Positions 22,801 to 60,027 of a stretch of DNA of 64,000 nucleotides are shown here, piece after piece. The translations under genes were made by a program, and so were the position numbers. Every line of letters starts with the position of its first letter. Positions within the stretch are counted from its first letter, which is position 1. The notes beneath the pieces were generated by a model, which saw only the letters and a list, made by a program, of their open reading frames with translations, was not told the DNA's origin and ran no database searches. Source of the stretch: Verrucomicrobiota bacterium (GTDB taxonomy: Bacteria; Verrucomicrobiota; Verrucomicrobiia; Limisphaerales; JAHDYP01); contig JAHDYP010000008.1 of NCBI GenBank assembly GCA_023383055.1, forward strand, positions 11,341-75,340, given 5' to 3'.

Positions 22801-23405
22801 GTTTGGCGCCAAAAGGTTTCGGCTTCGCCCGGCTGCTGCCGCCGCAGGCACTCGATGTGGTCGCGGTATGGCCGGGGTTGCGGCAACTCGAGGTCCTCGC
22901 CGCGCTGGAAGGCTTCGTAGAAGGCGAAGACCTCTTTCAAGACGATGACGATGCCGCGCATATCGAGCAACAGATGGTGAAAGGTCCAGACCAGTTGATG
23001 CTGTGTGTCGCCGAGGCGGAAGAGCGCAACGCGCATGAGCGGTGCCGCCGCAAGGTCAAAGCCACGGAGGCGATCCGAGCGCAGCCACGCCTCGAAGGCG
23101 AGACGCCGTTCGGACGATGGAACATCGCGCCAGTCTTTGCAGTGGACTTGGAGGCTCACGCCTTGGCGCACCTCCTGGTCCGGCTTCACGGAGCCGTTCC
23201 AGCGGAAGCTGGTTCGCAGGACGGCGTGGCGTTCGGCGACGCGTTGCCAGGCACGTTCAAGTCCCGTCGGATTCACGGCTTCGTGCCAGAGGCAGAGTAC
23301 CTGCTGGATGTCCACTCCCGGTTGCCGCGCGGACAGGCTGGAATACAGCATGCCGTGTTGCATGGGCGAAAGCGGATAGGCGTCGTTAATCGGCTCGTGT
23401 TTCAT
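16887..23405 (-). CDS. bimodular NRPS, C-A-T-C-A-T
   Basis: Domain motifs and coordinates:
- C1: PLSPMQHGML and HHLLLDMRG (22953-22979)
- A1 core: LAYVIYTSGSTGTPKGV (21501-21551)
- T1: LGGHSLLA (~20350-20395)
- C2: HHLACDGWS (19742-19769)
- A2 core: 18288-18338
- T2: LGGHSLLV (17085-17125)
Start trimmed to ATG 23405 (MKHEPINDAYPLSPMQ). Confidence 0.95.
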   Translation of the reverse strand: MKHEPINDAYPLSPMQHGMLYSSLSARQPGVDIQQVLCLWHEAVNPTGLERAWQRVAERHAVLRTSFRWNGSVKPDQEVRQGVSLQVHCKDWRDVPSSERRLAFEAWLRSDRLRGFDLAAAPLMRVALFRLGDTQHQLVWTFHHLLLDMRGIVIVLKEVFAFYEAFQRGEDLELPQPRPYRDHIECLRRQQPGEAETFWRQTMKGFAAPTPLVVAHVAREEAGETREQETRLSGAVTNALNSLATENKFTLNTVVQGAWALLLSRYSGEEDVVFGAVRACRRSTVEDAESIAGLFINTLPVRVRVNPELPLLPWLVELRQTWTALRPFEHTPLASIQGWSDLPGDTPPFASLVNFQDQPWTADLPPGNPGARREFSIRQHTNCPLALDASGGDALVLTILYHRSRFDDGSITRMLGHLQTLLEGMAANPFQRLGELPLLTGAERQWLETWNDTAVADSKNKCVHQLFAEQAARTPDALAVADNQQRLTYRELDERADRLAQRLQTLGVGPEICVAVCLERSVEMVVVLLAVLKAGGAFVPLDPAHPKERLALMIEDSLAQVLVTQESLQAEFTFDIPNLSVLCVDASAHASRLTPHASRLTHHASPPQSATRSPQLSNLAYVIYTSGSTGTPKGVEIEHASLVNLIQWHQRTYSVTCADRATQLANPAFDASVWELWPYLTAGACIYIPDHETVRLPAKLIAWLAANQITLTFIPTPVAEALLAGPWPEQCTLRALLTGGDQLRRPPTESLPCPLFNHYGPTENTVVTTWMEIPPTARVVAAPAIGRPITNNRVHVLDRQLQHVPIGVAGELHISGDGLARGYRNQPELTAQRFIANPFAADASPRLYKTGDLVRWLPDGNLDFIGRMDHQVKIRGNRVELGEIESVLSGHPSVREAVVAARAGARGARLVAWVVSRSGEELKANILRAFLKQRLPDYMLPADFVCLDVLPLTANGKMDRQALPDPPPELEREFTAPRTSVEARLAGIWQEVLDLTRVSVHADFFELGGHSLLAARVVSRARDEFARDFPLQDLFDCPTIAGWAERIEANNSCGHGMLDGAAFAAEGTRAQITRRERNGAGPLSFAQERLWFLEQLEPGIAFNNIPLAFRVSGTLNAPALESALRELIRRHEPLRTTFKSACGQPVALTLPLSSFAVQTRDLGGLPETERDTEAQRLIAEEAQRPFDLTRSPLLRGTMLRLSPTEHLLVLVTHHLACDGWSLDVFHRELAALYEAFALGRPSSLAALPIAYGDFAAWQRDALRGGDFERQLAYWREQLKGAAPSLDLRTDRRRPPVQTYRGATIHFALPAPLSAELAQLSRQANVTPFMLLLATFQTLLHRYSGQADILVGSPIAGRARVETEDLIGFFLNTLVLRGDLSGDPTFNELLQRTRQTALDAYAHQDVPFEKIAEAVQPNRDLSRPPLFQVMFVLQNEPLRPLALAGLKVSALPAHSGTAKFDLTLSLEESPGGLNGFIEYNTDLFDAAPIRRMIGHFRTLLEGAVAHPDKRLSQLPLLTDVERHQLLIEWNDTRAEFPKEKCVHELIEEQVERTPDAVAVVFEEEQLTYRQLNDCANQLAAQLRELGVGPNVRVGLCVERSLEMMVGLIGILKAGGAYLPLDAAYPHERLAFMLHDSLAPLMLTQKSMQANLRFDIPGLQVLDLESPQPARPAMQHASLPGSEGAAPGSEHLAYVIYTSGSTGTPKGVMVTHRNAVNFFAGMDRVLGTETGVWLAVSSISFDISVLELFWTLARGFKIIIQADERRASSARPLAGGVISRGHPLSVPENILRHSVTHLQCTPSLAGALARVPESLAAMRRLRRLLLGGEVLPVTLAGQLRRSLPGDLFNLYGPTETTVYSTAHRVAEMGSTIPIGRPMVNTEIYILDNTLAPVPAGVPGELFIGGEGVASGYLNRRELTEEQFIRHPFSANPKARLYRTGDRVRYREDGTLEFLERLDYQVKIRGHRIELGEIESALRKHSDVRECLVHVWESAPGDKRLAAYIVPARNPHTPADGLRRFLSRTLPEYMIPSAFVPLDSLPLTLNGKVDRKSLPEPGALRPELAAAFVAPRTELERTIANIWRELLRIEQVGLRDNFFDLGGHSLLVVQAQARLRDALGRDLPVVKLFQYPTISGLIECLTDREKSFSGQNRARGESKQAAFARRARREVEVTA
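21590..21638. repeat. 7 tandem copies of a heptanucleotide (gtgaKgc) inside NRPS A domain 1
   Basis: Plus strand reads gtgatgc gtgatgc gtgaggc gtgaggc gtgaggc gtgaggc gtgagca. It is translated on the minus strand as HASRLTPHASRLTHHASPP, just upstream of the LAYVIYTSGSTG core motif. Confidence 0.9.
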
Positions 23406-23463
23406 CGACTCTTTCGGTCTATTCGCATAACAATTTATTCGCTTGGAGGGCGTCGTGTTAGTG

Positions 23464-23499
23464 GGTAAAGACCCCAGAGCGGGTGGAGGTAACGACCTA
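23464..23499 (+). promoter_or_regulatory. phased direct-repeat element (GGTAAAGACCCC-N12-GGTAACGACCTA) in the divergent NRPS / S8-protease spacer
   Basis: Read directly from the DNA. Member of the GGTGAARACCCC family listed in the findings. The second half-site is degenerate. Confidence 0.4.
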
Positions 23500-23637
23500 A
23501 GCGCATAACGTTCCCGAAGCGGCAGGGAGGACACCAAGCCGGTGTCAATGCCCGCCGCTGTGCCCGAGGTTGTTTTCCCCGGCTTTTGAGGGTTTCACCC
23601 CGTTGTTGGCTTCGCCTGGTGATGTGTAATGTAGCAA

Positions 23638-25209
23638 ATGCATCCGAAAACGGACGCCCGACTGAATGGGTTGCGGGCGGTTGCTTTGACCTTGCTCGTG
23701 CTCCTCGGAAATGGGGCGCGGCAGTCCACTTCGGCACAAGCCACCACTCATTCTGCGTCGTGGGTTGCGCCGCACGGTGAGCGTTTTATGGTGAAACCGA
23801 AGCCGGCTGCGGATTTGTCCGCATTGCACGAATCACTCGGCGTTCGAGTCATGGAAAGATATCCGGCCATCGGCGGTCTCCAGATCGCTCTTGCACCCGC
23901 TGGCGTTGAGATGGATGCGATGATCCGTCGGTATCAAGCGAGCGGGCTGGTGAGCTACGCGGAACGGGATCAAATGGTTCACGCGCTGGTCGAGCCGGAT
24001 GATGTTCGCTTCCACAATGGCGATCTCTGGCACATTAAGAACATCGGCCAGTACGGCGGCGTAACGGGCGCAGACATCAGCGCGCCTGAAGCCTGGGACA
24101 CGATCGCCCGCGCGAGCAATGTCATCGTGGCGGTCATTGACAGCGGAGTGCGGGCCACACACGAGGACCTCGCGCCGAATTTGTGGCGCAACCCGGGCGA
24201 AATTCCCGGGAACGGCCTGGATGATGACGGCAACGGTTACGTGGACGACGTGCATGGCATCAACACCGTGGCGAACAACGGCCATCCGAATGACGAGTGG
24301 GGCCATGGCACGCACGTGGCCGGCATCCTGGGCGCGGTCGGCAGTAATGGCGTCGGCGTGGCCGGTGTCTGCTGGCGCGTGCAGATCATGGTCTGCAAAT
24401 TCTTTGATTCGGCGGCCCAGGGCCCGATTTCCGACGCGATCAAGTGCATCGATTACGCGCGCAGCAAGGGCGCGCACGTGATCAATGCCAGTTGGGGCAG
24501 CAATTCGTTTCACTCGCTGGCCTTGCGTGACGCCATCACCAGCGCACGCGAGGCGGACATTTTGTTTGTGGTGGCCGCCGGCAACTCGGCTGCCAACAAC
24601 GAGATCGATCCGATGTATCCGGCCAGTTACGACCTCGACAACATCATCTCCGTGGCGGCGACGACGCGCTCCGATACCCTGGCGGCTTTCTCCAACTACG
24701 GCGCGACCACGGTTGATCTGGGCGCGCCCGGCGATCCGGTTTATTCGTGTTGGAACAGCGCGGACAACGCCTACCAGAATCTCAGCGGCACTTCGATGGC
24801 CGCGCCCATCGTGGCGGGCGCGTGCGCTTTGGCGCGGGCGCGTTATCCGCAGGAGAATTCCCAGCAGATCAAACAGCGGATACTCAATGCCGCGGATTCG
24901 TTGCCCGGTCTCGCCGGCAAGTGCGTGACGGGAGGGCGGCTGAACCTGCAGAAACTGGTTAACGGTCCGCCTGCTCCCGCCAGACTCGTTATCCGAAGCA
25001 TCGGTCTGGTCCCGGCCGGGATTGCCATTTCCTGGTCCAGCGAGCCGGGCCGCGATTATGAGGTGCGTGCCAGGACTGTGAACGTTGACAACTGGCAAAA
25101 CCTCAGCGGAACCATCACGGCTACAAACGCATTAACTTCGTGGACCGACAACGGATACGCGGGTTTCGCGCAGCGCTTTTACACGGTGAAACTCGTGAAC
25201 TCGCCGTGA
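23638..25209 (+). CDS. secreted subtilisin-like serine protease (S8) with I9-like propeptide and C-terminal RFY domain
   Basis: Catalytic-triad motifs AVIDSGV (Asp), HGTHVAGI (His) and SGTSMAAP (Ser). N-terminal hydrophobic signal-like segment LRAVALTLLVLLG. C-terminal ~70 aa ends in QRFYTVKLVNSP. Confidence 0.9.
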   Translation: MHPKTDARLNGLRAVALTLLVLLGNGARQSTSAQATTHSASWVAPHGERFMVKPKPAADLSALHESLGVRVMERYPAIGGLQIALAPAGVEMDAMIRRYQASGLVSYAERDQMVHALVEPDDVRFHNGDLWHIKNIGQYGGVTGADISAPEAWDTIARASNVIVAVIDSGVRATHEDLAPNLWRNPGEIPGNGLDDDGNGYVDDVHGINTVANNGHPNDEWGHGTHVAGILGAVGSNGVGVAGVCWRVQIMVCKFFDSAAQGPISDAIKCIDYARSKGAHVINASWGSNSFHSLALRDAITSAREADILFVVAAGNSAANNEIDPMYPASYDLDNIISVAATTRSDTLAAFSNYGATTVDLGAPGDPVYSCWNSADNAYQNLSGTSMAAPIVAGACALARARYPQENSQQIKQRILNAADSLPGLAGKCVTGGRLNLQKLVNGPPAPARLVIRSIGLVPAGIAISWSSEPGRDYEVRARTVNVDNWQNLSGTITATNALTSWTDNGYAGFAQRFYTVKLVNSP

Positions 25210-25266
25210 GACCTTCCGCAGCCAGGTTGATCCTTGGGCGCAGATTCGAAGTGTCCACCGTGGGTG

Positions 25267-25300
25267 GGTGAAAACCCCACCCAGTAATGGTAAAGACCCC
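25267..25300 (+). promoter_or_regulatory. phased direct-repeat element GGTGAAAACCCC-N10-GGTAAAGACCCC upstream of the WecG-STAS operon
   Basis: Half-sites at 25267-25278 and 25289-25300, 22 nt start to start. A third related site, gtaggtgtacca, lies at 25311-25322. The operon ATG is at 25389. Confidence 0.5.
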
Positions 25301-25388
25301 AGCCACATGAGTAGGTGTACCAATGGGAGCCGGCAGGTAAGGTAGACTCCCCATTTCGCCGTCGCGCAACCCGGCCTTAACTAGGGGC

Positions 25389-26918
25389 ATGTATGCAGAG
25401 GAACTCACCGACGCTTCATCGGTGCGCCTGACCGCTCCGGCCCGCGACGCACCGGAACTGAGTCATCGCGTGCAGCGTTCGCACTCACCGCGCCAGCCCA
25501 TTGCACTGTTGGGCGTCGCGTTTGACAATCTGACACTGCGCGAGACCGTGAACCGCATTGAGGAGATGATTGCCTCCCCGCGTTCGCATTACGTGGTCAC
25601 CGCGAACATGGATTTCCTCGCGGTGGCGCGGCGCGATCCGGAATTCCAGCGCATCCTGCTCAACGCACATCTGGTGTTGTGCGACGGCACACCGTTGGTC
25701 TGGGCCTCGCGACTGTTTGGAAATCCCCTGCCGGAGCGGGTTGCGGGCGCGGACGTCGTGCCGGAGTTGATCCGGGTGGCGGCGGAGAAACATTACCGGC
25801 TGTTCTTCCTCGGAGCGACTGAGGAATCCAACACTCAGGCCATTGCCCGGCTGCGGGCGCGGTTCCCCGATTTGGACATCAGCCATTATTCGCCGCCGTT
25901 CCGGCCTTTGCCGGAACTGGACAACGCAGACATCATCCGCCGGGTTCGCGCGGCCAAACCGGATTTGTTGTTCGTGGCGTTTGGATGTCCCAAGGCGGAA
26001 AAGTGGATGGCCAGGCATTATGCTGAACTCGGCGTGCCCGTGGCCATTGGCATCGGTGCGACCATTGATTTTCTCGCGGGCCGCGTAAAGCGCGCGCCGC
26101 TCTGGATGCAGCGTGGCGGCGTGGAGTGGATCTACCGGCTCTGCCAGGAACCACGGCGATTGTTCAAACGCTACGCCACCGATCTTTGGTTTTTCGGCCG
26201 GACGATGGCTCGTCAATGCCGGACGATGAAACTGCGATCCGGCGGGGGACAACCCCAGACCCGGACTGCGGTCATCCAGTCCAACGGCACGTGGCAGAGG
26301 GTGCAAGCCGCGAACTGCTTGCACAGGGATTGCATCGAACGTGACACGGCTCAGTGGAAACGGATTGCGGGCGCGGATCGGCATTGTCTGCTGGAGTTGG
26401 CGGAGGTGAAGTCAATGGACAGCACCGGCGTGGCCGTCCTGGTTCATTTGCAGAAACAACTGCACCTTTCCGGTCGTCAATTGATCCTGCTGTCACCCTC
26501 GGCCGCGGTACGGCGTGCATTAAAGGCGATGCGGTTGGAGAACTTCTTCGAAGTCGCGACCGATGCTCTCGAAGCGCGGGCGGTGCTCGAAACCCGGTTG
26601 CACGAGCGGGACGCATCCACAGGGGATGACTCAGGCAGCTTGCTGGTGTGGTTGGGCGAAATCCCCGCGATCAATGCCGAACAAATCTGGCAATGCACCC
26701 AAGCCGCGATTCATCGCCACCATGCAACGGCTGAATCCTGGACGCTTGACCTCGCGGCGGTGCGCTTCATGGACAGCGACGGCGTCAAGTTGTTGCTGCG
26801 CGCCGTGGAAATCGCGCGCGCCCACGGCATTTGCCTGCGTTTCAGCCATCCGTCCCTGCGGGTGCGAAACGTGTTGCGCGGCTCCAACCACGAATACCTT
26901 CTGGATCATTCCGCATGA
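25389..26918 (+). CDS. WecG/TagA/CpsF-family glycosyltransferase fused to two C-terminal STAS domains
   Basis: N-terminal half matches the WecG/TagA pattern (VAFDNLTLRETV, HYVVTANMDFL, LVLCDGTPLVWASRL, LPERVAGADV). C-terminal half holds two STAS-like units with LAEVKSMDSTGVAVLV (Ser codon 26421-26423) and LAAVRFMDSDGVKLLL (Ser codon 26775-26777). Confidence 0.8.
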   Translation: MYAEELTDASSVRLTAPARDAPELSHRVQRSHSPRQPIALLGVAFDNLTLRETVNRIEEMIASPRSHYVVTANMDFLAVARRDPEFQRILLNAHLVLCDGTPLVWASRLFGNPLPERVAGADVVPELIRVAAEKHYRLFFLGATEESNTQAIARLRARFPDLDISHYSPPFRPLPELDNADIIRRVRAAKPDLLFVAFGCPKAEKWMARHYAELGVPVAIGIGATIDFLAGRVKRAPLWMQRGGVEWIYRLCQEPRRLFKRYATDLWFFGRTMARQCRTMKLRSGGGQPQTRTAVIQSNGTWQRVQAANCLHRDCIERDTAQWKRIAGADRHCLLELAEVKSMDSTGVAVLVHLQKQLHLSGRQLILLSPSAAVRRALKAMRLENFFEVATDALEARAVLETRLHERDASTGDDSGSLLVWLGEIPAINAEQIWQCTQAAIHRHHATAESWTLDLAAVRFMDSDGVKLLLRAVEIARAHGICLRFSHPSLRVRNVLRGSNHEYLLDHSA

Positions 26919-28102
26919 AAGTCGGCCTCTCCACTTCGGTGATTCAACAGGGCCAAAGCGGCGTGGCGCAGTACGTTTTCGCGCTGGTGGCGGCACTTTT
27001 GCGTCATCCCGCCCGCCCTGATCTGACGCTCTTTGTGCTGGAGGACGATGTGCCGCTGTTTCACTTCGCCCGAAATGACGCGAGAATCGTTCCCGTCTCC
27101 GAACGGATTCGTTCGCCGGTGAAGAACATTCTGTGGCATCAAACCGTGCTGCCGTTGCTCGCGCGCGATCATCGGCTCGACGTCCTGCATGTGCCCAGCT
27201 ATCGGCGGATGCTATGGCCGCGGCCGTGCCCGCTGGTTACGACGATTCATGATCTCGCTCCCTTTCATGTCGCGGGGAAATACGATTGGAAGCGGATGTT
27301 CTATGGCCGGATCGTGGCCCGATCGCTCGCACGTCGTCAGGACCGGATCATCGCCGTCAGCCAGAACACCGGCACAGACATTCAAAGATTCTTCAAAGTG
27401 CCGGCGGAGACAATCTCGGTGATTCACAATGGCCTCGATCATACCCGATTCGCTCCGGACGCAACCGAAGCTGCGAAGCAATTCGTCGCACAGCGTTTCG
27501 ATCTGCGCGAGCCCTTCTTTCTCTACGTCGCGCGACTCGAACATCCTGGCAAGAATCACGTGCGCCTGATCGAGGCCTTCAACCGCTTCAAGGCGCAGAC
27601 CCGATCGGAATGGCAACTTGTATTTGGCGGCAGCAACTGGCACGGCGCGCCAGCGATTCACGCAGCCATCAGGCAATGGCCGTTCCGCCGTGACATCCGG
27701 TGCCTGGGTTTTGTCGAAAGCGACGCGCTGCCCCTGCTATATCGCGCGGCGACGGTGTTCGTTTACCCCTCGCTGTTTGAAGGTTTTGGGTTTCCGCCGC
27801 TGGAAGCGATGGCCTGCGGGTGTCCAGTGCTGTGTTCGACTCGCGGAGCATTGGGCGAGGTCGTCGGCGATGCGGCCGCGACGGTAAATCCTGATGATGT
27901 CGCGGATTTGACCACGCAGCTTGCCGCGCTCGCGGGCGATCCGGCATTGCGCGCCAGGCTGCGCGCGGCTGGCCTGGCCCGGGCCCAACGCTTCGATTGG
28001 CAGCGGAGCGCATCCAGGACGCTGGAGGTGTATGCGTCTGTGCTCGAAGCCGTAACCGCCCCGGGGAACGTGATCGCCGCGCGGCAGGCGGTTGAACATT
28101 GA
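26915..28102 (+). CDS. GT4-family glycosyltransferase
   Basis: E-x7-E region SLFEGFGFPPLEAMACGCPVLCS. Start set to ATG 26915 (MKVGLSTSV), which overlaps the upstream stop as ATGA. Confidence 0.8.
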   Translation: MKVGLSTSVIQQGQSGVAQYVFALVAALLRHPARPDLTLFVLEDDVPLFHFARNDARIVPVSERIRSPVKNILWHQTVLPLLARDHRLDVLHVPSYRRMLWPRPCPLVTTIHDLAPFHVAGKYDWKRMFYGRIVARSLARRQDRIIAVSQNTGTDIQRFFKVPAETISVIHNGLDHTRFAPDATEAAKQFVAQRFDLREPFFLYVARLEHPGKNHVRLIEAFNRFKAQTRSEWQLVFGGSNWHGAPAIHAAIRQWPFRRDIRCLGFVESDALPLLYRAATVFVYPSLFEGFGFPPLEAMACGCPVLCSTRGALGEVVGDAAATVNPDDVADLTTQLAALAGDPALRARLRAAGLARAQRFDWQRSASRTLEVYASVLEAVTAPGNVIAARQAVEH

Positions 28103-28199
28103 GAATGGCCAAGGACACAATAGCTCGGGGCTTTTGCGCCTTCCGTGGTGATGATCTGGCGGGAAACAATAAACCGATGACTTTCCAACCTGGACGCCA

Positions 28200-29741
28200 A
28201 TGAAAAAGCAACTCCGCATCCTTTACGTGGAAGATATCCAGGCCGATGTGGTGCTGGTGAATCATGAATTGCGCAAAGGTGGCTTGAAGTTTCGCACCAA
28301 GCGCGTCGATGCCAGGAACGTGTTCATCCGGGAACTGGAACAACATCCGCCTGACCTCATTCTCTCCGATCACGGTCTGCCGGGCTTTGACGGTCTCGCC
28401 GCCCTCGCGATTGCCAAGAGCAAATGTCCGAACGTGCCGTTTATTTTCGTCACGAACTCGCGCGGCAAGGATATGGCCGCGGAGATGTTTGAACGCGGCG
28501 CGACGGATTACCTGTTGAAAACGCATCTGGCGAAGCTCGTGCCGTCGGTGCGGCGCGCGTTCCGCGAAGCCGAGACGCGCGCCAGACTGAAACAGCAGGA
28601 GCAGGCGTTGCATGAGAGCGAGGATCGTTTCCGGAGGGTGGTGAAAGAGATCAAGCATTACGCGATTTTCATGCTCGATACGGAAGGCCGGATCGCCACG
28701 TGGAATGAAGGCGCGGAACGCGTGCAAGGTTACCCCGCCAAAGAGGTCATCGGTAAACCGCTCGCGACATTCTTTCCGCCGGCAGACATCGAACGCAAAG
28801 TCCCGGCAGCCGTGCTCAGGAAAGCGGAGCAGGAGGGACGCGCGCTCAGCGAAGGCTGGCGCGTGCGCAAGGATGGCTCGTTGTTTTGGTCACAGGGGAT
28901 CATCACGGCGCTGCGCGACAAAGGCGGCCCGTTGCGCGGCTTTGCCACAGTGGCGCATGACCTGACGAAAGAGAAGCAGGCGGAAGCTGAAATCGAACGG
29001 CTGAATTCACAGTTGGAATCGCGTGTCCTCGAACGCACGGCGCAGTTGGAAGCGTTGAACCGGGAGCTGCAGGCATTCAGCTATTCGGTTTCCCATGATT
29101 TGCGCGCACCCCTGCGGCACATCGTGGGCTATGTGGATATTTTGCAGACCGCCGCCGGCCAGACGCTGGACGCAACCAGCCGCCAGCATCTCCAGACCAT
29201 CGCGCGGGCGGCGACACAGATGGGCCAGATGATTGACGCCCTGTTGGAGTTATCCCGGTTGGACCGCGCGGAAATGCGCTTCAAGCGGGTGAATCTCGCG
29301 GCGCTCGTGGAGGATGTGCGCAGGGAATTGCGCAGTGAAATCAAAGGCCGGGACATTGACTGGCAGATCGGCGACCTGCCGGAAGTGCAGGGCGATCCGT
29401 TGATGCTGCGCCAGGCCATTGTCAATCTGCTTTCCAACGCGATCAAATACACGCGCACGCGGCCCAAGGCGAAGATCGAAATCGGGGCGAAGAACTGCGG
29501 ACGCGAAACGACCTTTTTCGTTCGCGACAATGGCGTTGGCTTCGACATGGATTACGCGGACAAACTCTTCGCCGTGTTTCAACGGTTCCACCGGTCGAGC
29601 GAGTTCGAGGGCACCGGAGTCGGCCTGGCGATTGTCCGGCGGATCATCCATCAGCACGGCGGCCGCACCTGGGCTGAGGGAAAATCGGATGGCGGCGCGA
29701 CGCTGTATTTTTCAATACCCAAACCGCCGGTGGCAACCTGA
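28200..29741 (+). CDS. hybrid sensor kinase, REC-PAS-HisKA-HATPase_c
   Basis: REC: YVEDIQ, DLILSDHGLPGFDG, FVTNS, DYLLK. A PAS-like region follows. H-box SYSVSHDLRAPL. ATPase motifs DNGVGF and GTGVGLAIV. Confidence 0.85.
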   Translation: MKKQLRILYVEDIQADVVLVNHELRKGGLKFRTKRVDARNVFIRELEQHPPDLILSDHGLPGFDGLAALAIAKSKCPNVPFIFVTNSRGKDMAAEMFERGATDYLLKTHLAKLVPSVRRAFREAETRARLKQQEQALHESEDRFRRVVKEIKHYAIFMLDTEGRIATWNEGAERVQGYPAKEVIGKPLATFFPPADIERKVPAAVLRKAEQEGRALSEGWRVRKDGSLFWSQGIITALRDKGGPLRGFATVAHDLTKEKQAEAEIERLNSQLESRVLERTAQLEALNRELQAFSYSVSHDLRAPLRHIVGYVDILQTAAGQTLDATSRQHLQTIARAATQMGQMIDALLELSRLDRAEMRFKRVNLAALVEDVRRELRSEIKGRDIDWQIGDLPEVQGDPLMLRQAIVNLLSNAIKYTRTRPKAKIEIGAKNCGRETTFFVRDNGVGFDMDYADKLFAVFQRFHRSSEFEGTGVGLAIVRRIIHQHGGRTWAEGKSDGGATLYFSIPKPPVAT

Positions 29742-29751
29742 TGCGACCCGT

Positions 29752-30888
29752 ATGAATTCCGCGGTGCGTGCAAAAGCTGAGATTGATATTCTGCTGCTCG
29801 AAGACAGTTGCCGGGACGTGGAGCTGGTGGCGCACGCGTTGCGGCGCGGAGGCCTGGGCTTCAAGGTCGAGCACGTGGACAGCAAGCGCGCCTTCATTCA
29901 GCGCCTCAATCAACGCGCTCCCGATTTGATCCTCTCGGATTTTTCGCTGCCGACCCTCGATGGTTACACGGCGCTCGCCATCGCCCACAAGAAATGCCCG
30001 GAGGTGCCTTTCATTTTCGTGTCCGGGACGCTTGGCGAGGAAACGGCGATTGAAACGTTGAAGAAAGGCGCGACCGATTATGTGCTCAAGGAGCGCCTGG
30101 TGCGGCTCGTGCCCTCCGTGCAACGGGCCTTGCGGGAGGCCAGGGAACGAACCGGGCGGCGGCGCGCCCAGGAACAACTCCGGCGCTCGCATAAACAACT
30201 GCGCACGCTTTCGGATTATCTGCAGTATGTCCGCGAAGAGGAGCAAATCCGCATCGCGCGGGAAGTCCACGATGAACTGGGCCAGTCGTTAACCGGCCTG
30301 AAGCTGCAACTGACCTGGCTCGCGAGCCGGCTGCCGAAGCGATCGAAGCCGCTTCACGAAAAAGCGCGGTCCATGGCCGCGCACATTGACGAAACCATCC
30401 AGGTCGTTCGCCGCATCGCCACCGAACTCCGCCCCGGCGTGCTCGACACCGCCGGATTGCTCGCCGCGCTGGAATGGCAGGCGAACGCATTTCAAACCCA
30501 GACCGGTATAGTGTGCGAGGTGAAAACTCAGATGAAGGAAACACTCTGGGACCAGGACCTCAACACCGCGTTCTTTCGCATCTTTCAGGAAGCCCTCACC
30601 AACATCATCCGGCACGCCAAGGCGACGAAAGTGGAAGTGCGCCTGGCGGAAGCCCGCGGCCAGGTCGTGCTCGAGGTCACGGACAACGGGCGCGGCATTT
30701 CCGACGCGGAAATTCATAATACGAAATCCATCGGGCTGCTTGGCATTCGCGAGCGCGCGGCGTTGCTGGGCGGCACCGTGCGCATCAAAGGCGGGCGCGG
30801 CAAGGGCACCGCCCTGACGGCCCGTATTCCCAAAACGTCCGTGGCGCGGACGAGATTGCATTCCCATGAGAATTCTCATCACCGATGA
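29752..30888 (+). CDS. REC-HisKA_3-HATPase_c sensor kinase (NarL-partner type)
   Basis: REC: LLLEDS, DLILSDFSLPTLDG, FVSGT, DYVLK. H-box REVHDELGQSLTGLK. ATPase motifs DNGRGI and GLLGIRERA. Start set to ATG 29752 (MNSAVRAK), 11 nt after the upstream stop. Confidence 0.8.
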   Translation: MNSAVRAKAEIDILLLEDSCRDVELVAHALRRGGLGFKVEHVDSKRAFIQRLNQRAPDLILSDFSLPTLDGYTALAIAHKKCPEVPFIFVSGTLGEETAIETLKKGATDYVLKERLVRLVPSVQRALREARERTGRRRAQEQLRRSHKQLRTLSDYLQYVREEEQIRIAREVHDELGQSLTGLKLQLTWLASRLPKRSKPLHEKARSMAAHIDETIQVVRRIATELRPGVLDTAGLLAALEWQANAFQTQTGIVCEVKTQMKETLWDQDLNTAFFRIFQEALTNIIRHAKATKVEVRLAEARGQVVLEVTDNGRGISDAEIHNTKSIGLLGIRERAALLGGTVRIKGGRGKGTALTARIPKTSVARTRLHSHENSHHR

Positions 30889-31495
30889 TCACGCCGTCGT
30901 GCGACAAGGCTTGCGGCTGATTCTCGCGGATCATTTCAAGAAAGCCGTGTTCGGCGAAGCGCGCAACGCCACGGAGGCGCTGGCCCGCGTCTGGAAGGAG
31001 AAATGGGACGTGGTGGTGCTTGACATCACGATGCCAGGCCGCAGCGGGCTGGAGGTGTTGAAGGAAATCAAACGGTCGCGCCCGAAATTGCCGGTGCTGG
31101 TCCTGAGCATGCATCCCGAAGACCAGTTCGCCGTGCGCCTCCTCAAGGCGGGCGCGGCGGGGTATCTCACGAAGGAGAGCGCGGGCGAGGAATTGGTCGG
31201 TGCCATCAAGAAAGTGGTCGGCGGCGGACGCTATATCAGTCCATCGCTGGCAGAGCGCATGGCCGCGTATCTGACCATCGACGTTCAGAAAGCGCCGCAC
31301 GAACGGTTATCGGACCGGGAATTCCTGATTCTGCGCATGTTCGCCTCCGGCAAACAAGTCAGCCAGATCGCCGGGGAACTGTCGCTGAGTGTCTCCACCG
31401 TCAGCACCTACCGCGCGCGCATCCTGGAGAAGATGGACATGAAGAACAACGCCCAACTGACACATTACGCGCTACAGAAGGAATTGGTGGATTGA
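30866..31495 (+). CDS. NarL/LuxR-family response regulator (REC + HTH)
   Basis: ILITDDH, DVVVLDITMPGRSG and a LuxR-type HTH (LSDREFLILRMFASGKQVSQIAGELSLSVSTVSTYRARILEKM). Overlaps the upstream kinase by 23 nt. It is the only DNA-binding protein I can identify in the window. Confidence 0.9.
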   Translation: MRILITDDHAVVRQGLRLILADHFKKAVFGEARNATEALARVWKEKWDVVVLDITMPGRSGLEVLKEIKRSRPKLPVLVLSMHPEDQFAVRLLKAGAAGYLTKESAGEELVGAIKKVVGGGRYISPSLAERMAAYLTIDVQKAPHERLSDREFLILRMFASGKQVSQIAGELSLSVSTVSTYRARILEKMDMKNNAQLTHYALQKELVD

Positions 31496-31504
31496 GGGAA
31501 CAGT

Positions 31505-31539
31505 GGGGTCTTTCCCATCCGGCGCTGAGGTCTTCACCC
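31505..31539 (-). promoter_or_regulatory. phased direct-repeat element (minus-strand reading GGTGAAGACCTC-N11-GGGAAAGACCCC) upstream of the wzz-like operon
   Basis: Plus strand shows ggggtctttccc at 31505-31516 and gaggtcttcacc at 31528-31539. Sits 58 nt before ATG 31597. Orientation is opposite to the flanking genes. Confidence 0.45.
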
Positions 31540-31596
31540 ACTACCCGAACCAGAGTTTTGAGCGGAGAATTCGCGTGACTGAGCGATGACAAACAG

Positions 31597-34524
31597 ATGA
31601 ACGACGAATCCAACGTGAATGGCGAGTTGCCCGATCCCTCCGCCAGCGGCAGGTCGCCGGGCCGGGCCAGGGGCAACGGCCATCGGCCGCCGTCCGAACC
31701 CAAAGCGCCGCAGTTCGGCGCGGCGGACCTCCTGCCTTTCGTAAACGCGCTGGGACAGCACTGGAGGTGGCTGTGGCTCGGCGGAACGGCGATGGCCCTG
31801 ATCGGGCTGCTTTCCGGTTTGTGGCTTTGGAAGCCCAGTTACACGGCCTCGGCGCAGTTGCTGCGTCAGGCTTCGGCGCAGGTGATGGAAGTTCTCGGTG
31901 ATCGCGAGTTGGATCCGAACACTTACGCCAGTGTGCTGCGCGCGCCGGAATTGGTGCAGCGCGTGGCCGCCCACGCCCGGCCACCGGTTACGCCCGAGTG
32001 GCTGGACAAGCGACTCAACATCACCCCGGAACGAAACAGTGATCTCCTCCTCATTGCTGTTTCCACCGGCGATCGGCAGGGCGCGGTGGATCTGGCCAAT
32101 CTTTACGCGCGGGAAGCCGTGGGGTTCATGCAGGAATTACAGACCAATGCCGCCGCGCGAGCCAGAATCCTGCTCGCCCAACAACTCGCTCCGATCGAAG
32201 CTGAAATCTCCTCGCTGAACAAGGCAACTCAACCAGCAGCCGCCCGCCGTGCGGTTGCGGCGCGATCGCCATTACTCGACAAGCTCCCCGCTGCGCAGCT
32301 GGAACTGGCCGATCTGCTGGCGCGCTACACCGAGCTACATCCGCTCGTGCGGGAACAGCAGGCGAAGGTGGCAGCCATCGAAAGTCAATTGCGGCTGGTG
32401 CCCGCAACGCCGCCAACGGCAGCCGACATTGCGGAAGAGGGGAGTGCCGGGCCGATCGGGCAGGATCGCGATCCCGTGGTCCTGCAGACGAAACTTCAAT
32501 CGCTGGAAAACGCGCGGCTGGCGTTGCTCGGGCAGATGCAGGCAGCCCTATCGCTGGAAACCCAACCGCCCGGGACATGCCGCATCCTCGCGCCGGCCAC
32601 GTTCAAAGCCGCGCTACCCCACACGCGAACAGCCAAGGTCGCGGTGCTCGCAGGATTTGGCGGCATGATAGGCCTCTTTATTGTCTGCGCCTTGATTTTG
32701 CTGGCCGAAGCAGTGGACCCCCGGCTCAAGACGGCCGCGGACGTGCAACGGGTCACGCGGCTGCCCGTCGTGGCGACGGCGGGTGACCTGGCGCACATGA
32801 CCGAAGCGGAACAGAGCAACTGGGCGTTTCGGGCGTGGACGAGTTTGCAGCGGTTGCTAAGCCCATCGTCGAACCAGGGGTTCGTTTGCGGCATCACGTC
32901 CTCGGAAAGTGGCGAAGGCCGTTCGACGTGGATCCGATTGCTGGCCGAGGAGGCGAGCCAACGCGGCTTTCGCGTCCTGACCATTATTGCGCGTCCGCCG
33001 GAGCATAACGGCAAAGCGATTACGGGGCAAAGCCGCAAGGCGATCACTGACTCGGCGCTGGCTGCGAACGATACCTCCGATTTGGAAGCGCTCGTGACCA
33101 GGAATGGGAACGGAGCGCTGACGGCGACCCATGTGCTCAACACACCGGACGAAGTGACGCAGAAATTGATTGGCCCGAATCCGGAACCCGTCGTGGAGAT
33201 TCCGCTGCCGGGTTGGGTGTGGAATCTCGAACGCCGCAAGCAATGGCACGCGGCCCTTCGTCACTGGAGCCAGATCGACAGCATCGCGCTGCTGGTCGAG
33301 TTGCCGCCCGCGTCCCTGCCGGAGACAGTGCTGCTGGCGGAGAATCTCCCCAACGTGATCTGGCTGGCAGACGGCGAGAAGGCGACGGCGGCCAGGACGC
33401 GCGAACAATTGGAGACGTTGCGCAACGCGCGTTGTCACCTGGCCGGAGCAGTGTTGAATCGTGCGCCGGTCCCGGTTTTGACCAATCGTTTTGCCCGCTG
33501 GCTGGGTTGCGCGGCGTTGATTTGCGGTCTGCCCGGGTGGTCCGCTTATGGCCAGGAGGGCGAAGTTCAATCCACGAACAAAACGGCCGGCGTGGCGAAT
33601 CCAAATCGTTCGCTCTCGGTCGTCACTCCCGCGCAGCGCGCCGCGTGGCAGGAGCGCTTGACACTTGGTCCCGGGGATGTGGTGACGCTGGCGCTGTGGG
33701 GCGAACCGGTCTTGACCCGCACGGAAGTGGCGGTCGGTCCCGACGGCCGGATCAGCTTTGCGGAAGCGCAGGACGTTCTCGCCACGGGACTGACGCTGGA
33801 CGAATTGCGCGTCAAGCTGGACGAGGAGCTCGGCAAGTATCGCCGCGCGCCACAAACGATGATTACGCCCGTCGCGTTCAGGAGCAAAAAATATTACGTC
33901 CTCGGCCGCGTCACGATGAAAGGGGTTTACGTTCTGGACCGGCCCATCACCTTGCTGGAAGCGGTCGCGCGCGCGCATGGTTTTGAAACCGGCCTGGTGG
34001 ATCGGAACATCATTACGGTGGCGGACTTCTCGCGAAGTTTTCTGATGCGCAAAGGTGAGCGCATGCCGCTCAACTTTGAAAGTCTGTTCCAAAATGGTGA
34101 TCTTTCGCAAAACCTCAGCATCGAGCCAGGCGACTATCTCTATTTCCCGGGCGCGAATGTCAAAGAAGTCTACGTCGTCGGTGAAGTGCGGTTGCCCGGT
34201 TCAACTCCCTACACCACTGGTTTGACGCTCATGGGCGCGATTACCGCCCGGGCCGGTTACACCGAGCGCGCTTACAAAGGCCGGGTGCTGGTCGTCCGCG
34301 GCTCATTGAACAAGCCGGAGACATTTGCCGTTGAGACCAAAGATATTCTTGCCGGGAAGGTGCCTGATTTTCGTTTGCAGCCCAAGGACATCATCTTTGT
34401 GAACTCGCGCCCGTTCATTTATGGCGAGGAACTGGCGGACTTGGCGATCACGGTGTTTCTCCAATCCCTTGTGTCGGTCGCCGTCGGCCAGGAATTGATC
34501 TATCCATTCCCAGTATCACCATGA
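31597..34524 (+). CDS. fusion protein: Wzz/GumC-like chain-length determinant + degenerate BY-kinase-like domain + Wza-like polysaccharide export (Poly_export/SLBB) region
   Basis: N-terminal TM segment plus a Wzz-like periplasmic/coiled-coil region. Second TM segment VAVLAGFGGMIGLFIVCALILLA. P-loop-like ITSSESGEGRSTW has Arg where the Walker A Lys is expected (codon 32920-32922). A signal-like segment RFARWLGCAALICGLPGWSAYG lies at ~33481-33560. It is followed by LGPGDVVTLALWGEP and SLBB-like repeats. Confidence 0.7.
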   Translation: MNDESNVNGELPDPSASGRSPGRARGNGHRPPSEPKAPQFGAADLLPFVNALGQHWRWLWLGGTAMALIGLLSGLWLWKPSYTASAQLLRQASAQVMEVLGDRELDPNTYASVLRAPELVQRVAAHARPPVTPEWLDKRLNITPERNSDLLLIAVSTGDRQGAVDLANLYAREAVGFMQELQTNAAARARILLAQQLAPIEAEISSLNKATQPAAARRAVAARSPLLDKLPAAQLELADLLARYTELHPLVREQQAKVAAIESQLRLVPATPPTAADIAEEGSAGPIGQDRDPVVLQTKLQSLENARLALLGQMQAALSLETQPPGTCRILAPATFKAALPHTRTAKVAVLAGFGGMIGLFIVCALILLAEAVDPRLKTAADVQRVTRLPVVATAGDLAHMTEAEQSNWAFRAWTSLQRLLSPSSNQGFVCGITSSESGEGRSTWIRLLAEEASQRGFRVLTIIARPPEHNGKAITGQSRKAITDSALAANDTSDLEALVTRNGNGALTATHVLNTPDEVTQKLIGPNPEPVVEIPLPGWVWNLERRKQWHAALRHWSQIDSIALLVELPPASLPETVLLAENLPNVIWLADGEKATAARTREQLETLRNARCHLAGAVLNRAPVPVLTNRFARWLGCAALICGLPGWSAYGQEGEVQSTNKTAGVANPNRSLSVVTPAQRAAWQERLTLGPGDVVTLALWGEPVLTRTEVAVGPDGRISFAEAQDVLATGLTLDELRVKLDEELGKYRRAPQTMITPVAFRSKKYYVLGRVTMKGVYVLDRPITLLEAVARAHGFETGLVDRNIITVADFSRSFLMRKGERMPLNFESLFQNGDLSQNLSIEPGDYLYFPGANVKEVYVVGEVRLPGSTPYTTGLTLMGAITARAGYTERAYKGRVLVVRGSLNKPETFAVETKDILAGKVPDFRLQPKDIIFVNSRPFIYGEELADLAITVFLQSLVSVAVGQELIYPFPVSP

Positions 34525-35765
34525 GCACCACCAATGCCTCCAACCCGGCGTCCGGGGGAAATCCTGGAAACGACTCCCCTCAAGACGACAGCAGGGACAA
34601 CCTGCCCTGTGGGTTTAGCGCAATGCTGCAGGGTGTGTTCGTCAACGGCCTTCTATTTGCCGTCGTGCTGATGGCCGGTTGCAGCACTGCAACCGTGCAA
34701 GACTACAACTCGAAAACTCACGGCGCCGCCCGCGCGCCGGCCGGCGTGAGTCCGGCCGGATCGGTGACGTTGACCAACGAACTGGACCAGCGTCTGCTCG
34801 AGGCGCCGACCGAGATGTTCACGCTGGGACCGGGGGACCGGCTCGAATTGGAGTTGATCGGCGATCCGGCTTCGCGAACCACCACGGTGGTGGCGCCGGA
34901 CGGAAAGCTCTATTTCAACCTGCTGCCGGGCCTGGATGTGTGGGGACTCACTTTGACGGAGGCGAAAGCCCGGCTGGAAAGCTCCTTCACCAATTATCAT
35001 CGCGAGCAGCCGCGGGTGGCGATGACCTTGCGCGGCGTGGAAAGCAAACGCCTCTGGGTCCTGGGAGTCGTGCAGGCACCGGGCGTTTATACCATGGCGA
35101 CGCCGAAGACCCTGCTGGAATCCATTGCGATGGCGGGCGGGACGTTGAGTATGACGACGTTCAGCGACCAGAACGCCGCAGGAATCGGCGAGGAACTGGC
35201 CGATTTGAAGCGCAGTTTTGTGCTTCGACAAGGCCGGCTCCTGGCCGTGGATTTCAACCGCTTGCTCCGGGAGGGTGATCTCAGCCAGAATATCTACCTG
35301 GAGCCGGATGATTTTGTTTATCTGCCGCCAGCCGCGTCGCGGCAGGTTTACGTTCTTGGCGCAGTGGTCCAGCCGCGGCCCGTGCCGTATATGGAAGGCA
35401 TGACCGTGGCCGGCGCGGTGGCGAGTGCCTACGGGACATTGCGGGACGCTTACCTGCCGCATGTAGCGGTGGTGCGCGGCTCGCTCGCGGAACCGCAGCT
35501 CACGATTGTCAATTACCGGAAGGTCATCCGGGGGGAGGAAAACGACATCCAACTGGAACCGAATGACATCGTGTACGTGCCGCTTTCGCCCTACCGGTAT
35601 TTGCGGCGGTATGCGGAAGTCATCTTGAACACTTTCGTCAGCGCTTCAGCAATCAGTGCCGGCTCATACTCCATAACCAAGGAGGAGGAGTTTGTCGGCG
35701 GCGTGTTCATTCCGGTGGGCAGCGGCGTTACGGTCATTCCGCCGGTTTCGCCACCTCCGCCGTGA
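34521..35765 (+). CDS. Wza-like outer-membrane polysaccharide export lipoprotein
   Basis: Lipobox-like VVLMAGCS, Poly_export-like FTLGPGDRLELELIGDP and SLBB-like repeats. ATGA overlap with the upstream gene. Confidence 0.75.
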   Translation: MSTTNASNPASGGNPGNDSPQDDSRDNLPCGFSAMLQGVFVNGLLFAVVLMAGCSTATVQDYNSKTHGAARAPAGVSPAGSVTLTNELDQRLLEAPTEMFTLGPGDRLELELIGDPASRTTTVVAPDGKLYFNLLPGLDVWGLTLTEAKARLESSFTNYHREQPRVAMTLRGVESKRLWVLGVVQAPGVYTMATPKTLLESIAMAGGTLSMTTFSDQNAAGIGEELADLKRSFVLRQGRLLAVDFNRLLREGDLSQNIYLEPDDFVYLPPAASRQVYVLGAVVQPRPVPYMEGMTVAGAVASAYGTLRDAYLPHVAVVRGSLAEPQLTIVNYRKVIRGEENDIQLEPNDIVYVPLSPYRYLRRYAEVILNTFVSASAISAGSYSITKEEEFVGGVFIPVGSGVTVIPPVSPPPP

Positions 35766-37735: not shown

Positions 37736-37859
37736 TAGAACCATGCATTCAACCCACCGACCCATTGAACCCAGAGGCGCAGACCCGGCCGAGAACCGCA
37801 GAGTCCCATTCTCCCAGCGGGCTTCGCCGTTTGGGGAGCGGCTTCCGTTTCCCGCGCAG

Positions 37860-43815: not shown

Positions 43816-44040
43816 AATGTGGGCCGGTGTTCAGGCGAGATGCGCCCGCATCGGCTGCCGATAAGCCGGAAGTGGCACGGTTGGCTGATGAAGGCTTCCG
43901 TGCGCGTGACTACGCGTTTACTGCTGTCTCGACTGTCTAAGTGTCGTAAAGGGCCTGGCGACCCAATTTGAGCTGAAGATTTCCATCGCGGGATGGGTGT
44001 CTCCCCTCCGCCGCCAAAGAGTAGGTGAATACCCCATTGA

Positions 44041-48043: not shown

Positions 48044-48735
48044 ACACCGAAGTCCCTCCAACACTGATCGCGCTGGTTGGCGGGAGCGGCGCGGGAAAAA
48101 CGTGGCTGGCAAACCGTCTGTGCCAGGAATGTGGCGACCAGGCAACATCGCTTTCACTCGACGACTTTTACTGCGATCTCTCGCACCTGAGTGTTATCGA
48201 ACGGGAGAAGGTCAATGTCGATCATCCCGACGCGATTGACTGGCCGCTTTTCGAAAGCGTACTTCGCCTTCTGCACACTGGCGCGACGGTGTTGGCGCCG
48301 CGCTACGACTTCGCTTCCCACACCCGGTTGACCCGCGGTCAGTGGCACAGTCCCCGGCCATTTATTTTCGTGGAAGGTCTGTGGCTTCTGTGGCCTCCGC
48401 GAATGCGAGCGCAGTTCGATCTGCGGGTGTTTCTCGATTGCGTTCAATCAACGCGTTGGCAAAGGCGGGTGACACGCGATCTCAAGGAACGAGGGCGTAC
48501 CACGACAGTGATCCACAAACACTTTTGGAACGTTGTTGCCCCCATGCATGACCGTTATGTCGAGGTGCAGAAGCCCTGGGCGGATCTCGTCCTTGACCAT
48601 TCCATCACCCAGGCCGAGCTTGGCCGATTGGTGGGAACGATTCGCAATCTCCGCGCGGAGTCATACCCGATACCCTTGACAGATGCCGGTTTACGGGCAG
48701 AAACGCCGCCGGTGGCGGCACTGCACCCTTTATGA
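48040..48735 (+). CDS. uridine-kinase/phosphoribulokinase-family P-loop kinase
   Basis: LIALVGGSGAGKTWLA, SLDDFY, NVDHPDAIDW, APRYDFASHTR, FVEG and RRVTRDLKERGR follow the Udk-family pattern. ATGA overlaps on both sides. Confidence 0.65.
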   Translation: MNTEVPPTLIALVGGSGAGKTWLANRLCQECGDQATSLSLDDFYCDLSHLSVIEREKVNVDHPDAIDWPLFESVLRLLHTGATVLAPRYDFASHTRLTRGQWHSPRPFIFVEGLWLLWPPRMRAQFDLRVFLDCVQSTRWQRRVTRDLKERGRTTTVIHKHFWNVVAPMHDRYVEVQKPWADLVLDHSITQAELGRLVGTIRNLRAESYPIPLTDAGLRAETPPVAALHPL

Positions 48736-50357: not shown

Positions 50358-50714
50358 ATGAACATCAACCAACAAGACGGCACTTTGAGCGTGACCGGCC
50401 TTCGCGAATTGAATGCCACCAACGCCCGGGCATTTCGTTCCACCCTGGCCCGGGCGTTGTCGCAAGACCTCAAAGCCATTGAAATTGACTTGTCCCACAC
50501 TCAAGCCGTGGACGGTGCTGGCCTGGGTGCGCTGGTGGCGCTCTATGAGACGGCGAAGGAACGCCGAAAGCAGGAAGGCTTTGCGCTCCGTCTGACCCAT
50601 CCCACACCCCCGGTGCAACAAATGATCGAACTGGCGCGGTTACATCATCTGTTTGAAGTATCCCACCCGGAAAGCACACCGGACGGAACGCGCCCGGCGA
50701 TCGATCTGAAATGA
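50358..50714 (+). CDS. single-domain STAS protein (anti-sigma-factor-antagonist-like)
   Basis: 118 aa. IEIDLSHTQAVDGAGLGALVAL matches the STAS core, but Gly (codon 50514-50516) occupies the position of the usually phosphorylated Ser. Confidence 0.75.
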   Translation: MNINQQDGTLSVTGLRELNATNARAFRSTLARALSQDLKAIEIDLSHTQAVDGAGLGALVALYETAKERRKQEGFALRLTHPTPPVQQMIELARLHHLFEVSHPESTPDGTRPAIDLK

Positions 50715-60025: not shown

Positions 60026-60027
60026 AC

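Follow-up and report, generated by a model that had tools for sequence, protein, structure and literature searches.

According to our analysis, the gene at positions 25389 to 26918 on the plus strand of a 64,000-nucleotide stretch of Verrucomicrobiota DNA (contig JAHDYP010000008.1; hereafter the window) encodes a 509-amino-acid fusion protein in which a glycosyltransferase of the WecG/TagA family (GT26) is followed by two STAS domains. STAS proteins usually work in partner-switching cascades that control sigma factors and are governed by phosphorylation of a Ser residue. Here, the fusion is proposed to be an active GT26 enzyme carrying in cis a tandem STAS switch, which would be set by Ser phosphorylation through a kinase and a PP2C phosphatase encoded in the gene clusters of the family, and we regard the chances of this proposal as about even. 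Direct phospho-control of a glycan enzyme by STAS domains is plausible, and the fusion is a candidate for it on the basis of sequence, of the gene neighbourhoods in relatives and of analogy with characterized systems.

The open reading frame (ORF) comprises 509 codons and is uninterrupted, its sole stop codon being the terminal one. The Pfam family PF03808 (WecG/TagA/CpsF) matches residues 93 to 262 (E 4e-63; 212.6 bits against a cut-off of 27.4), and PF01740 and PF13466 each match two stretches with E values of about 1e-18, all of these matches exceeding the gathering scores. This agrees with the earlier note on this DNA, which had read from the letters a WecG/TagA half followed by two STAS units and had suggested these profiles as a check. 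The STAS profile scores are likewise above the cut-offs (PF01740, 67.3 bits; PF13466, 65.6 bits; TIGR00377, 71.6 bits), and NCBIfam TIGR00696 scores 147.1 bits against a cut-off of 69. The catalytic core of the GT26/GT-E type with its C-terminal tail, delimited by phmmer and Foldseek comparisons with TagA, occupies residues 35 to 282 (25491 to 26234); STAS1 occupies residues 290 to 408 (26256 to 26612) according to Pfam, the structural model and Foldseek, and STAS2 occupies residues 409 to 509 (26613 to 26915) according to Pfam and the model. The Ser codons that had been placed in MDSTG (26421 to 26423) and MDSDG (26775 to 26777) are exact and correspond to Ser345 in the DSTG motif of STAS1 and Ser463 in the DSDG motif of STAS2. 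The AlphaFold model of the whole protein is compact, with a pLDDT of 84.7 and a pTM of 0.83. NCBIfam holds no dedicated model for a WecG-STAS-STAS fusion, the nearest equivalogs, EpsA and TarA, scoring far under their cut-offs; an Rfam scan of positions 23000 to 32000 returned no RNA element, and full-text literature searches retrieved no paper on a WecG-STAS protein.

The earlier note had named an artefact of assembly or annotation, namely a missed stop or a frameshift between the glycosyltransferase and STAS parts, as one outcome that would overturn its reading, and we consider the probability of such an artefact negligible. The reading frame is continuous, and GC content by codon position is alike in the enzyme part, STAS1 and STAS2, so that no hidden frameshift is suggested. 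Moreover, hundreds of contigs and genomes that are independent of one another show the identical architecture, even where identity falls to 38%, and a single ORF is called in independent NCBI, JGI and Logan records, which together rule the artefact out.

The protein is 100% identical to one from a Verrucomicrobia metagenome-assembled genome (MAG). WecG, STAS and STAS_2 matches are present in all of its 120 best database relatives, down to 49% identity, except two truncated entries; the architecture is kept in relatives from independent assemblies down to 38-49% identity, and two Pedosphaera entries bear the name "Anti-sigma-factor antagonist and glycosyl transferase". When the 225-residue STAS tandem alone was searched against 1.84 billion representative proteins, 556 matches were obtained at E<=1e-3 and 209 at E<=1e-10. 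The best 150 are all STAS1-then-STAS2 tandems, and WecG is present in every tandem-STAS match whose N-terminus is included; the matches without WecG look like fragments, and free-standing tandem-STAS proteins are therefore unsupported by this search. At least 350 non-identical relatives carry the WecG-STAS-STAS fusion. With one genome retained per species, the best 80 loci belong nearly all to Verrucomicrobiota (Limisphaerales/Pedosphaera, Opitutaceae, Verrucomicrobiales, Chthoniobacterales and Terrimicrobiaceae) and include two isolates, Prosthecobacter fluviatilis KACC 12649 and the gammaproteobacterium Luteimonas panaciterrae Gsoil 068, which means that cultured carriers of the fusion exist. 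The Luteimonas locus (L063, 9713 to 12148) is the only clear carrier outside Verrucomicrobiota and suggests horizontal transfer; its open frame extends about 250 amino acids beyond STAS2 into a region resembling a degenerate ParA/BY-kinase-type ATPase, which may be part of the same protein or a second one.

Variants of the architecture were also found. Two WecG domains precede the STAS tandem in P0148, a GT4 domain stands in front in P0250 (GT4-WecG-STAS-STAS), and an Sfp-type phosphopantetheinyl transferase (PPTase) is fused before WecG-STAS-STAS in P0173/L086. A single STAS domain follows WecG in L049, L055 to L057, L059, L060, L065, L069, L072, L074 and L079 to L081.

The enzyme half looks catalytically intact, as judged from its sequence. 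A phmmer comparison with Thermoanaerobacter TagA (7mpk) gives an E value of 4.5e-41, and Foldseek superposes the model on TagA/TarA structures (5wb4, 5wfg and 7mpk) with target-normalised TM-scores of 0.89-0.94 and root mean square deviations of 1.6-2.2 Å. The TagA residues T37, D65, R214, R221 and R224 correspond to T71, D99, R250, R257 and K260 of the fusion, the last lying next to R261, and T71, D99, R250, R257 and R261 are invariant across all 84 loci that we compared; in the 7mpk alignment, the hydrophobic positions W239, V245, I248 and C252 align with the TagA tail. In TagA, the core residue D65 and the tail residues R214, R221 and R224 are needed for catalysis (PMC8784642), the C-terminal tail serves both to close the active site and to bind the membrane, and activity is confined to the monomer (PMC6493773, PMC8784642, PMC9804384). 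The fusion thus resembles TagA/TarA and WecG in its fold, its catalytic Asp and Thr, its three basic tail residues and its hydrophobic tail patch, whereas the known GT26 enzymes stop after the tail and the fusion goes on for about 225 residues as a tandem STAS. In the AlphaFold model, the tandem begins about 10 residues past the long tail helix 255-281, so that it is joined to the very part by which TagA activity is gated; by analogy, the STAS domains may regulate the enzyme via this tail. The Bac_transf, Wzy and Wza genes of the cluster point to a lipid-PP-sugar as the likely acceptor.

STAS1 and STAS2 each show the complete beta-alpha pattern of a STAS domain in the secondary structure of the model, where helix alpha2 starts at Ser345 in the one and at Ser463 in the other. 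Among proteins of solved structure, TM1442, a Haliangium antagonist, RsbV and SpoIIAA come closest in sequence and fold, and both halves are predicted to be of the phosphorylatable anti-sigma-antagonist type. We surveyed the Ser positions in 351 non-identical relatives, of which 331 could be scored at the STAS1 site and 274 at the STAS2 site. STAS1 carries Ser in 307 of the 331 (93%), with Ala in 11, Gly in 10 and three single residues elsewhere, while STAS2 carries Ser in 242 of the 274 (88%), Thr in 15 (5%), Arg in 7, Gly in 4 and scattered singles. The phosphomimetic residues Asp and Glu are absent at both sites among these relatives. Such a pattern is consistent with, and no proof of, phosphorylation at a site whose unmodified state is the working one.

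Genes encoding candidate partners occur near the fusion in part of the family. Kinase or phosphatase genes were found within 10 kb of the fusion in 14 of the 84 loci, in at least six arrangements, which argues for a functional link over inherited synteny alone. In L044, L047, L069 and L071, a Ser-bearing orphan STAS gene is followed by a gene for a protein of about 600 amino acids that, according to Pfam, combines HATPase_c_2 (an RsbW-type Ser kinase), GAF and SpoIIE (PP2C) domains (L044, 7490 to 9295; L047, 1563 to 3344; L071, 17429 to 19249; L069, 2120 to 3982), and in L044 and L071 a gene for a single receiver domain comes next. In L044, the STAS, kinase-GAF-PP2C, receiver, WecG-STAS-STAS and GT4 genes are tightly packed on one strand and form one apparent operon. 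The PP2C end of such a protein, cut by the edge of the locus, lies about 9 kb upstream of the fusion and is followed by a PF01663 gene in L023, L026, L048, L050 and L052 to L054, the Prosthecobacter isolate included. Elsewhere, the STAS gene precedes a stand-alone RsbW-like kinase (L076), REC-SpoIIE (PP2C) genes flank the fusion on both sides (L064), or a REC-PAS-SpoIIE gene lies near it (L009). NCBIfam also reports a weak similarity of the kinase-GAF-PP2C protein to the Pseudomonas phosphatase SiaA.

Two characterized systems are instructive here. All4160 of Anabaena sp. PCC 7120 consists of an N-terminal STAS domain fused to Bac_transf; it loses activity when the RsbW-like kinase Alr3423 phosphorylates its Ser74, and the REC-SpoIIE phosphatase HenR reactivates it (Harada et al. 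2026, PMC13555669). STAS and Bac_transf fusions are described as largely cyanobacterial (PMC13555669), and Synechocystis XssP is a further close system. The parallel with our family lies in a STAS domain fused to a polysaccharide-biosynthesis enzyme, the canonical Ser and partners of the RsbW-like kinase and PP2C (SpoIIE) types; the output of All4160 is enzyme activity rather than a sigma factor, and its unphosphorylated form is the active one. However, All4160 has one N-terminal STAS on Bac_transf, the first step of the pathway, whereas the Verrucomicrobiota protein has a C-terminal tandem on a GT26/GT-E enzyme that would perform the second. The window's protein does not belong to the All4160 type, since its enzyme is of PF03808, its STAS domains are C-terminal and in tandem, and Bac_transf is encoded by a separate gene (48732 to 49466). 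In addition, All4160 is cyanobacterial and its control has been shown, while control of the Verrucomicrobiota fusion is predicted from sequence.

The second system is that of Vibrio fischeri, where the syp locus encodes the orphan STAS protein SypA; the kinase/phosphatase SypE controls SypA, whose unphosphorylated form is the active one; V. vulnificus and V. parahaemolyticus are without sypE (PMC4517449, PMC8256260). It shares with the Verrucomicrobial clusters a single-domain STAS gene in a polysaccharide locus, a bifunctional RsbW-kinase/PP2C regulator (present in relatives of the window), post-transcriptional control (as proposed for these clusters) in addition to a two-component transcriptional tier, and lineages without the kinase/phosphatase. 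It differs in that SypE has a central receiver domain, whereas its Verrucomicrobial counterpart has GAF and the receiver is a separate gene, and in that no syp enzyme carries a fused STAS. The window itself is not Syp-like, as its orphan STAS has Gly53 where SypA has Ser56, and no bifunctional kinase/PP2C is present in it or in L084 and L085. With RsbV-RsbW-RsbU and SpoIIAA-SpoIIAB-SpoIIE, the family has in common the STAS fold, the geometry of the DSxG phospho-site and, in relatives, an RsbW-type kinase and a PP2C nearby; it differs from them in having the STAS domains within an enzyme, kinase and phosphatase in one protein, and no sigma or anti-sigma partner. By analogy, we think that the fusion family works like the All4160 and SypA systems and belongs to neither of them.

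The proposed mechanism follows these precedents. The Bac_transf of the cluster presumably makes a lipid-PP-sugar, to which the WecG/TagA/GumM-type GT26 enzyme would attach a second sugar; at this cytoplasmic step, material would be committed to a Wzy/Wza-type exopolysaccharide pathway. Behind the C-terminal tail, the tandem STAS would act as the regulatory switch in cis, its state depending on whether the helix-alpha2 Ser, above all Ser345 of STAS1, is phosphorylated. The acting enzymes would be an RsbW-like kinase and a PP2C from the same clusters, such as the SypE-like kinase-GAF-PP2C that travels with a SypA-like orphan STAS, and the unphosphorylated form would be active, as in All4160 and SypA. 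The architecture, the conserved residues and the neighbouring genes are observed, while the substrate, the phosphorylation and the direction of its effect are deduced from them. The earlier note had suggested that partner-switching logic may be wired onto a glycan enzyme. This suggestion gains from the antagonist-type STAS domains with their Ser residues, the intact-looking enzyme and the RsbW-like and PP2C genes in relatives; the arrangement is nevertheless not unprecedented, as All4160 was described in 2026 and SypA/SypE imply the same. What is new here is the presence of kinase/PP2C genes near the fusion in the 14 related loci, STAS control of an enzyme being in itself not new in kind.

Several points weigh against phosphorylation control. 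No kinase or phosphatase gene lies within 10 kb of the fusion in 70 of the 84 loci, many of which are short, and Ser345 is conserved in the window's clade although neither the window nor the orphan-STAS operon contains such a gene; conservation of this residue could come from a structural helix-capping role. Since Arg, Gly and other residues replace the STAS2 Ser in a minority of relatives, STAS2 may not be a phospho-site. Verrucomicrobial genomes are expected to hold many PP2C genes, so that some of the co-localisation may be chance or inherited synteny. Furthermore, phosphorylation is a prediction for every family member, made from sequence and analogy, and contact between the STAS domains and the tail is predicted from the high pTM of the model.

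These points lend some weight to the alternative that the tandem STAS is a phosphorylation-independent module with Ser serving as the helix N-cap, an alternative that we consider possible but doubtful. The module might be a pseudo-dimeric scaffold recruiting GT4, the orphan STAS or other enzymes, might mediate membrane targeting or oligomerisation, or might bind a nucleotide or anion ligand. The STAS domains of SLC26 transporters and of MlaB operate without phosphorylation, and the fusion shows weak NCBIfam similarity to mlaB and sulP. The absence of a kinase or phosphatase gene from the window and from its clade's orphan-STAS operon, the persistence of natural variants (Ala or Gly in STAS1; Arg, Gly or others in STAS2), an orphan STAS clade that functions with Gly and a high pTM, which suggests a fixed architecture, all favor it as well. 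On the other hand, the DSTG motif is 93% conserved, Asp and Glu do not occur at the site, the tandem's closest relatives in sequence and fold are antagonists of the phosphorylatable type, and kinase/phosphatase genes recur by the fusion in several independent arrangements.

The orphan STAS gene of the window (50358 to 50714, plus strand; Pfam E 1e-12) encodes a single-domain protein of 118 amino acids, which is non-phosphorylatable at the corresponding position, where it has Gly53 in VDGAG (50514 to 50516). It overlaps by ATGA a gene for a PF01663 phosphodiesterase/alkaline-phosphatase-superfamily enzyme (50711 to 51979, plus strand; Pfam), so that both the Gly motif and the coupling to an AlkP-family enzyme, as described in the earlier note, hold. 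The DG[AV]G motif occurs in 117 of 120 orphan STAS orthologues (60-96% identity). In L084 and L085, which belong to the window's clade and are on long contigs, the GT4, PRK, Bac_transf, left-handed-helix (LbH), STAS, PF01663 and FkbM genes occur in this arrangement, with the same 4-nucleotide STAS/PF01663 overlap and no kinase or PP2C gene between the two. Since DG[AV]G is fixed and the operon is conserved, the Gly orphan is a stable, selected form and not a decaying gene. Seven other loci have, no more than 10 kb from the fusion, a single-domain STAS gene that is a more distant relative of the orphan, and every one of these genes keeps Ser in DSSG or DSCG (L044, L047, L064, L066, L069, L071 and L076). 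The window's clade would thus represent a derived, kinase-less state at the orphan-STAS operon. Because SypA-S56A and All4160-S74A are active and escape inhibition, the simplest reading by analogy is that the Gly orphan is a SypA-like activator locked in the unphosphorylated, constitutively active form, which is simpler than the competitor or adaptor role that the earlier note had proposed for it; in the proposed mechanism, the clade would have fixed it in the "on" position. No dedicated NCBIfam model was found for the PF01663 enzyme or for the 468-amino-acid protein described below.

No RsbW-type kinase or PP2C phosphatase was detected in six frames of the window with profile hidden Markov models (HMMs) built from the related kinase/PP2C genes, and Pfam scans of all plausible window ORFs found no sigma factor, in agreement with what had been noted from the letters. 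The regulators that these scans returned are ordinary histidine kinases, a NarL-type regulator and a lone receiver domain; a weak HATPase_c_2 match in the ORF at 29419 to 30888 is part of an ordinary REC-HisKA_3 histidine kinase. As the fused STAS domains keep their Ser residues, the gene for any kinase acting on them would have to lie in another part of the genome. The lack of kinase and phosphatase genes holds for the window, not for the whole family, and at the orphan-STAS operon it is common to the window's clade. The lone receiver gene (about 53030 to 53535, plus strand), which lies behind the gene for the FkbM methyltransferase, shares just 23% identity with the receiver that follows kinase-GAF-PP2C in L071 and was not treated as its orthologue.

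It is also conceivable that the fused STAS domains titrate an RsbW-like anti-sigma kinase, so that the abundance or state of the enzyme feeds back on sigma-dependent transcription and not on catalysis, which we deem improbable. The STAS domains are of the anti-sigma-antagonist type, and in L087, from a Pedosphaera MAG, the minus strand encodes an ECF sigma factor together with a zf-HC2 anti-sigma (5821 to 7130) about 1.2 kb downstream of the fusion, just after GT4. However, this pair is non-recurrent and its zf-HC2 anti-sigma is no RsbW-type kinase. The window has neither a sigma factor nor an RsbW-type gene, and no sigma-factor gene is found among the recurrent fusion neighbours of the 84 loci, so that the regulated output of classical partner switching is absent from both. 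In addition, the associated kinase is fused to PP2C as in SypE, which has no sigma output.

The genes around the fusion indicate a Wzy/Wza-type exopolysaccharide cluster, as predicted from their domains. A GT4 glycosyltransferase gene (26915 to 28102) has its ATG overlapping the stop codon of the fusion (ATGA, 26915 to 26918); GT4 is present in 59 of the 60 loci with a full-length fusion, usually directly downstream, and the 4-nucleotide overlap recurs in L001, L003, L087 and the P0059 contig. Next on the plus strand are genes for a REC-PAS-HisKA-HATPase kinase, a REC-HisKA_3-HATPase kinase and a NarL-type regulator (28200 to 31495), probably a transcriptional control tier, and for two Wza-like export proteins with Poly_export and SLBB domains (31597 to 35765). 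They are followed by two paralogous proteins of about 660 amino acids (35762 to 39776) with a marginal Peptidase_C25 match (E 5e-5 and 2e-4), two GH9 genes of the cellulase family with CelD_N domains inside the polysaccharide cluster (40024 to 46686), GT4, a PRK-like kinase and the phosphoglycosyl transferase Bac_transf (48732 to 49466; PF02397, E 2e-65), the initiating enzyme. The plus-strand series ends with a nucleotidyltransferase-like protein of the left-handed-helix type, the orphan STAS with its PF01663 neighbour, and an FkbM methyltransferase. The minus strand carries a DUF2334 gene, GT4, a Wzy-type polymerase (55666 to 57126; PF04932), a methyltransferase and GT2, after which comes a GT2 gene on the plus strand. 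Among the 84 loci, the large Wza-like exporter is near the fusion in 33 and the small one in 26, the PAS histidine kinase in 24, the REC-HisKA_3 kinase in 10, the NarL-type regulator in 16, Wzy in 13 and the PF01663 enzyme in 12 by gene clustering (about 20 by phmmer).

Large GH9 genes with CelD_N are conserved in the window's clade, with two to four per cluster among the window, L084 and L085, and together with the GumM-like GT26 enzyme the GH9 genes give a hint of a beta-glucan-type backbone. A protein without Pfam or NCBIfam match (468 amino acids; 59884 to 61290, plus strand) is a recurrent member of the cluster, being found, at about 355-470 amino acids, in 19 loci, often just upstream of the fusion (for example L064, 18334 to 19476, and L087, 1268 to 2416).

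On its other side, the fusion is divergent from a minus-strand operon for nonribosomal peptide synthetase (NRPS), hybrid polyketide synthase (PKS)-NRPS, ABC exporter, methyltransferase and Sfp-type PPTase (1008 to 23537). NRPS/PKS and Sfp-type PPTase genes are recurrent neighbours of the fusion. In 19 of the 84 loci, in MAGs labelled Limisphaerales and Opitutaceae/Opitutales, the gene directly upstream of the fusion encodes an NRPS, and an Sfp-type PPTase gene immediately precedes the fusion in L012, L076 and L087, in addition to being fused to it in P0173/L086. The STAS domain of E. coli YchM was reportedly crystallised with acyl carrier protein. The STAS tandem might therefore dock a phosphopantetheinylated carrier protein and couple the glycosyltransferase to an NRPS/PKS product, such as a glycosylated lipopeptide or a polysaccharide lipid anchor. 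We consider such docking very improbable: neither NRPS nor PPTase genes occur within 10 kb in many loci, for example those of the Prosthecobacter type, the GT26 domain retains all features of a lipid-PP-sugar enzyme, and the contact between STAS and carrier is conjectural.

A bolder reading, which we think unlikely, extends the proposed phospho-switch to several STAS domains that together would gate polysaccharide enzymes and not transcription. One SypE-like kinase/phosphatase would set both the orphan and the two fused STAS domains, and the unphosphorylated orphan would dock on the STAS tandem of the fusion, or on the Bac_transf encoded two genes upstream of the orphan gene; this docking would free the C-terminal tail of GT26 for membrane binding and catalysis. 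In a more unusual variant, the tandem would recruit a carrier protein and tie the enzyme to the NRPS/PKS-PPTase genes. If the multi-STAS reading is true, glycosyltransferases would be the long-sought class of SypA targets, and the window's clade would have hard-wired the orphan "on" by a Ser-to-Gly change after losing the kinase.

The first demonstration that a fused STAS domain places a polysaccharide enzyme under direct phospho-control dates from 2026, and its authors described this control as specific to cyanobacteria. The fusion family suggests an independent origin of such logic in a second phylum, where the enzyme belongs to a different class and acts one step later in the pathway. The position of the tandem directly behind a TagA-type tail, which binds the membrane and closes the active site, suggests a concrete allosteric route for such control. 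Finally, the related clusters unite a free SypA-like STAS, a SypE-like kinase/phosphatase and a STAS-bearing enzyme, and thereby give "Rosetta-stone" hints that SypA-type regulators may act on glycosyltransferases, which offers a testable lead for the SypA target in Vibrio.

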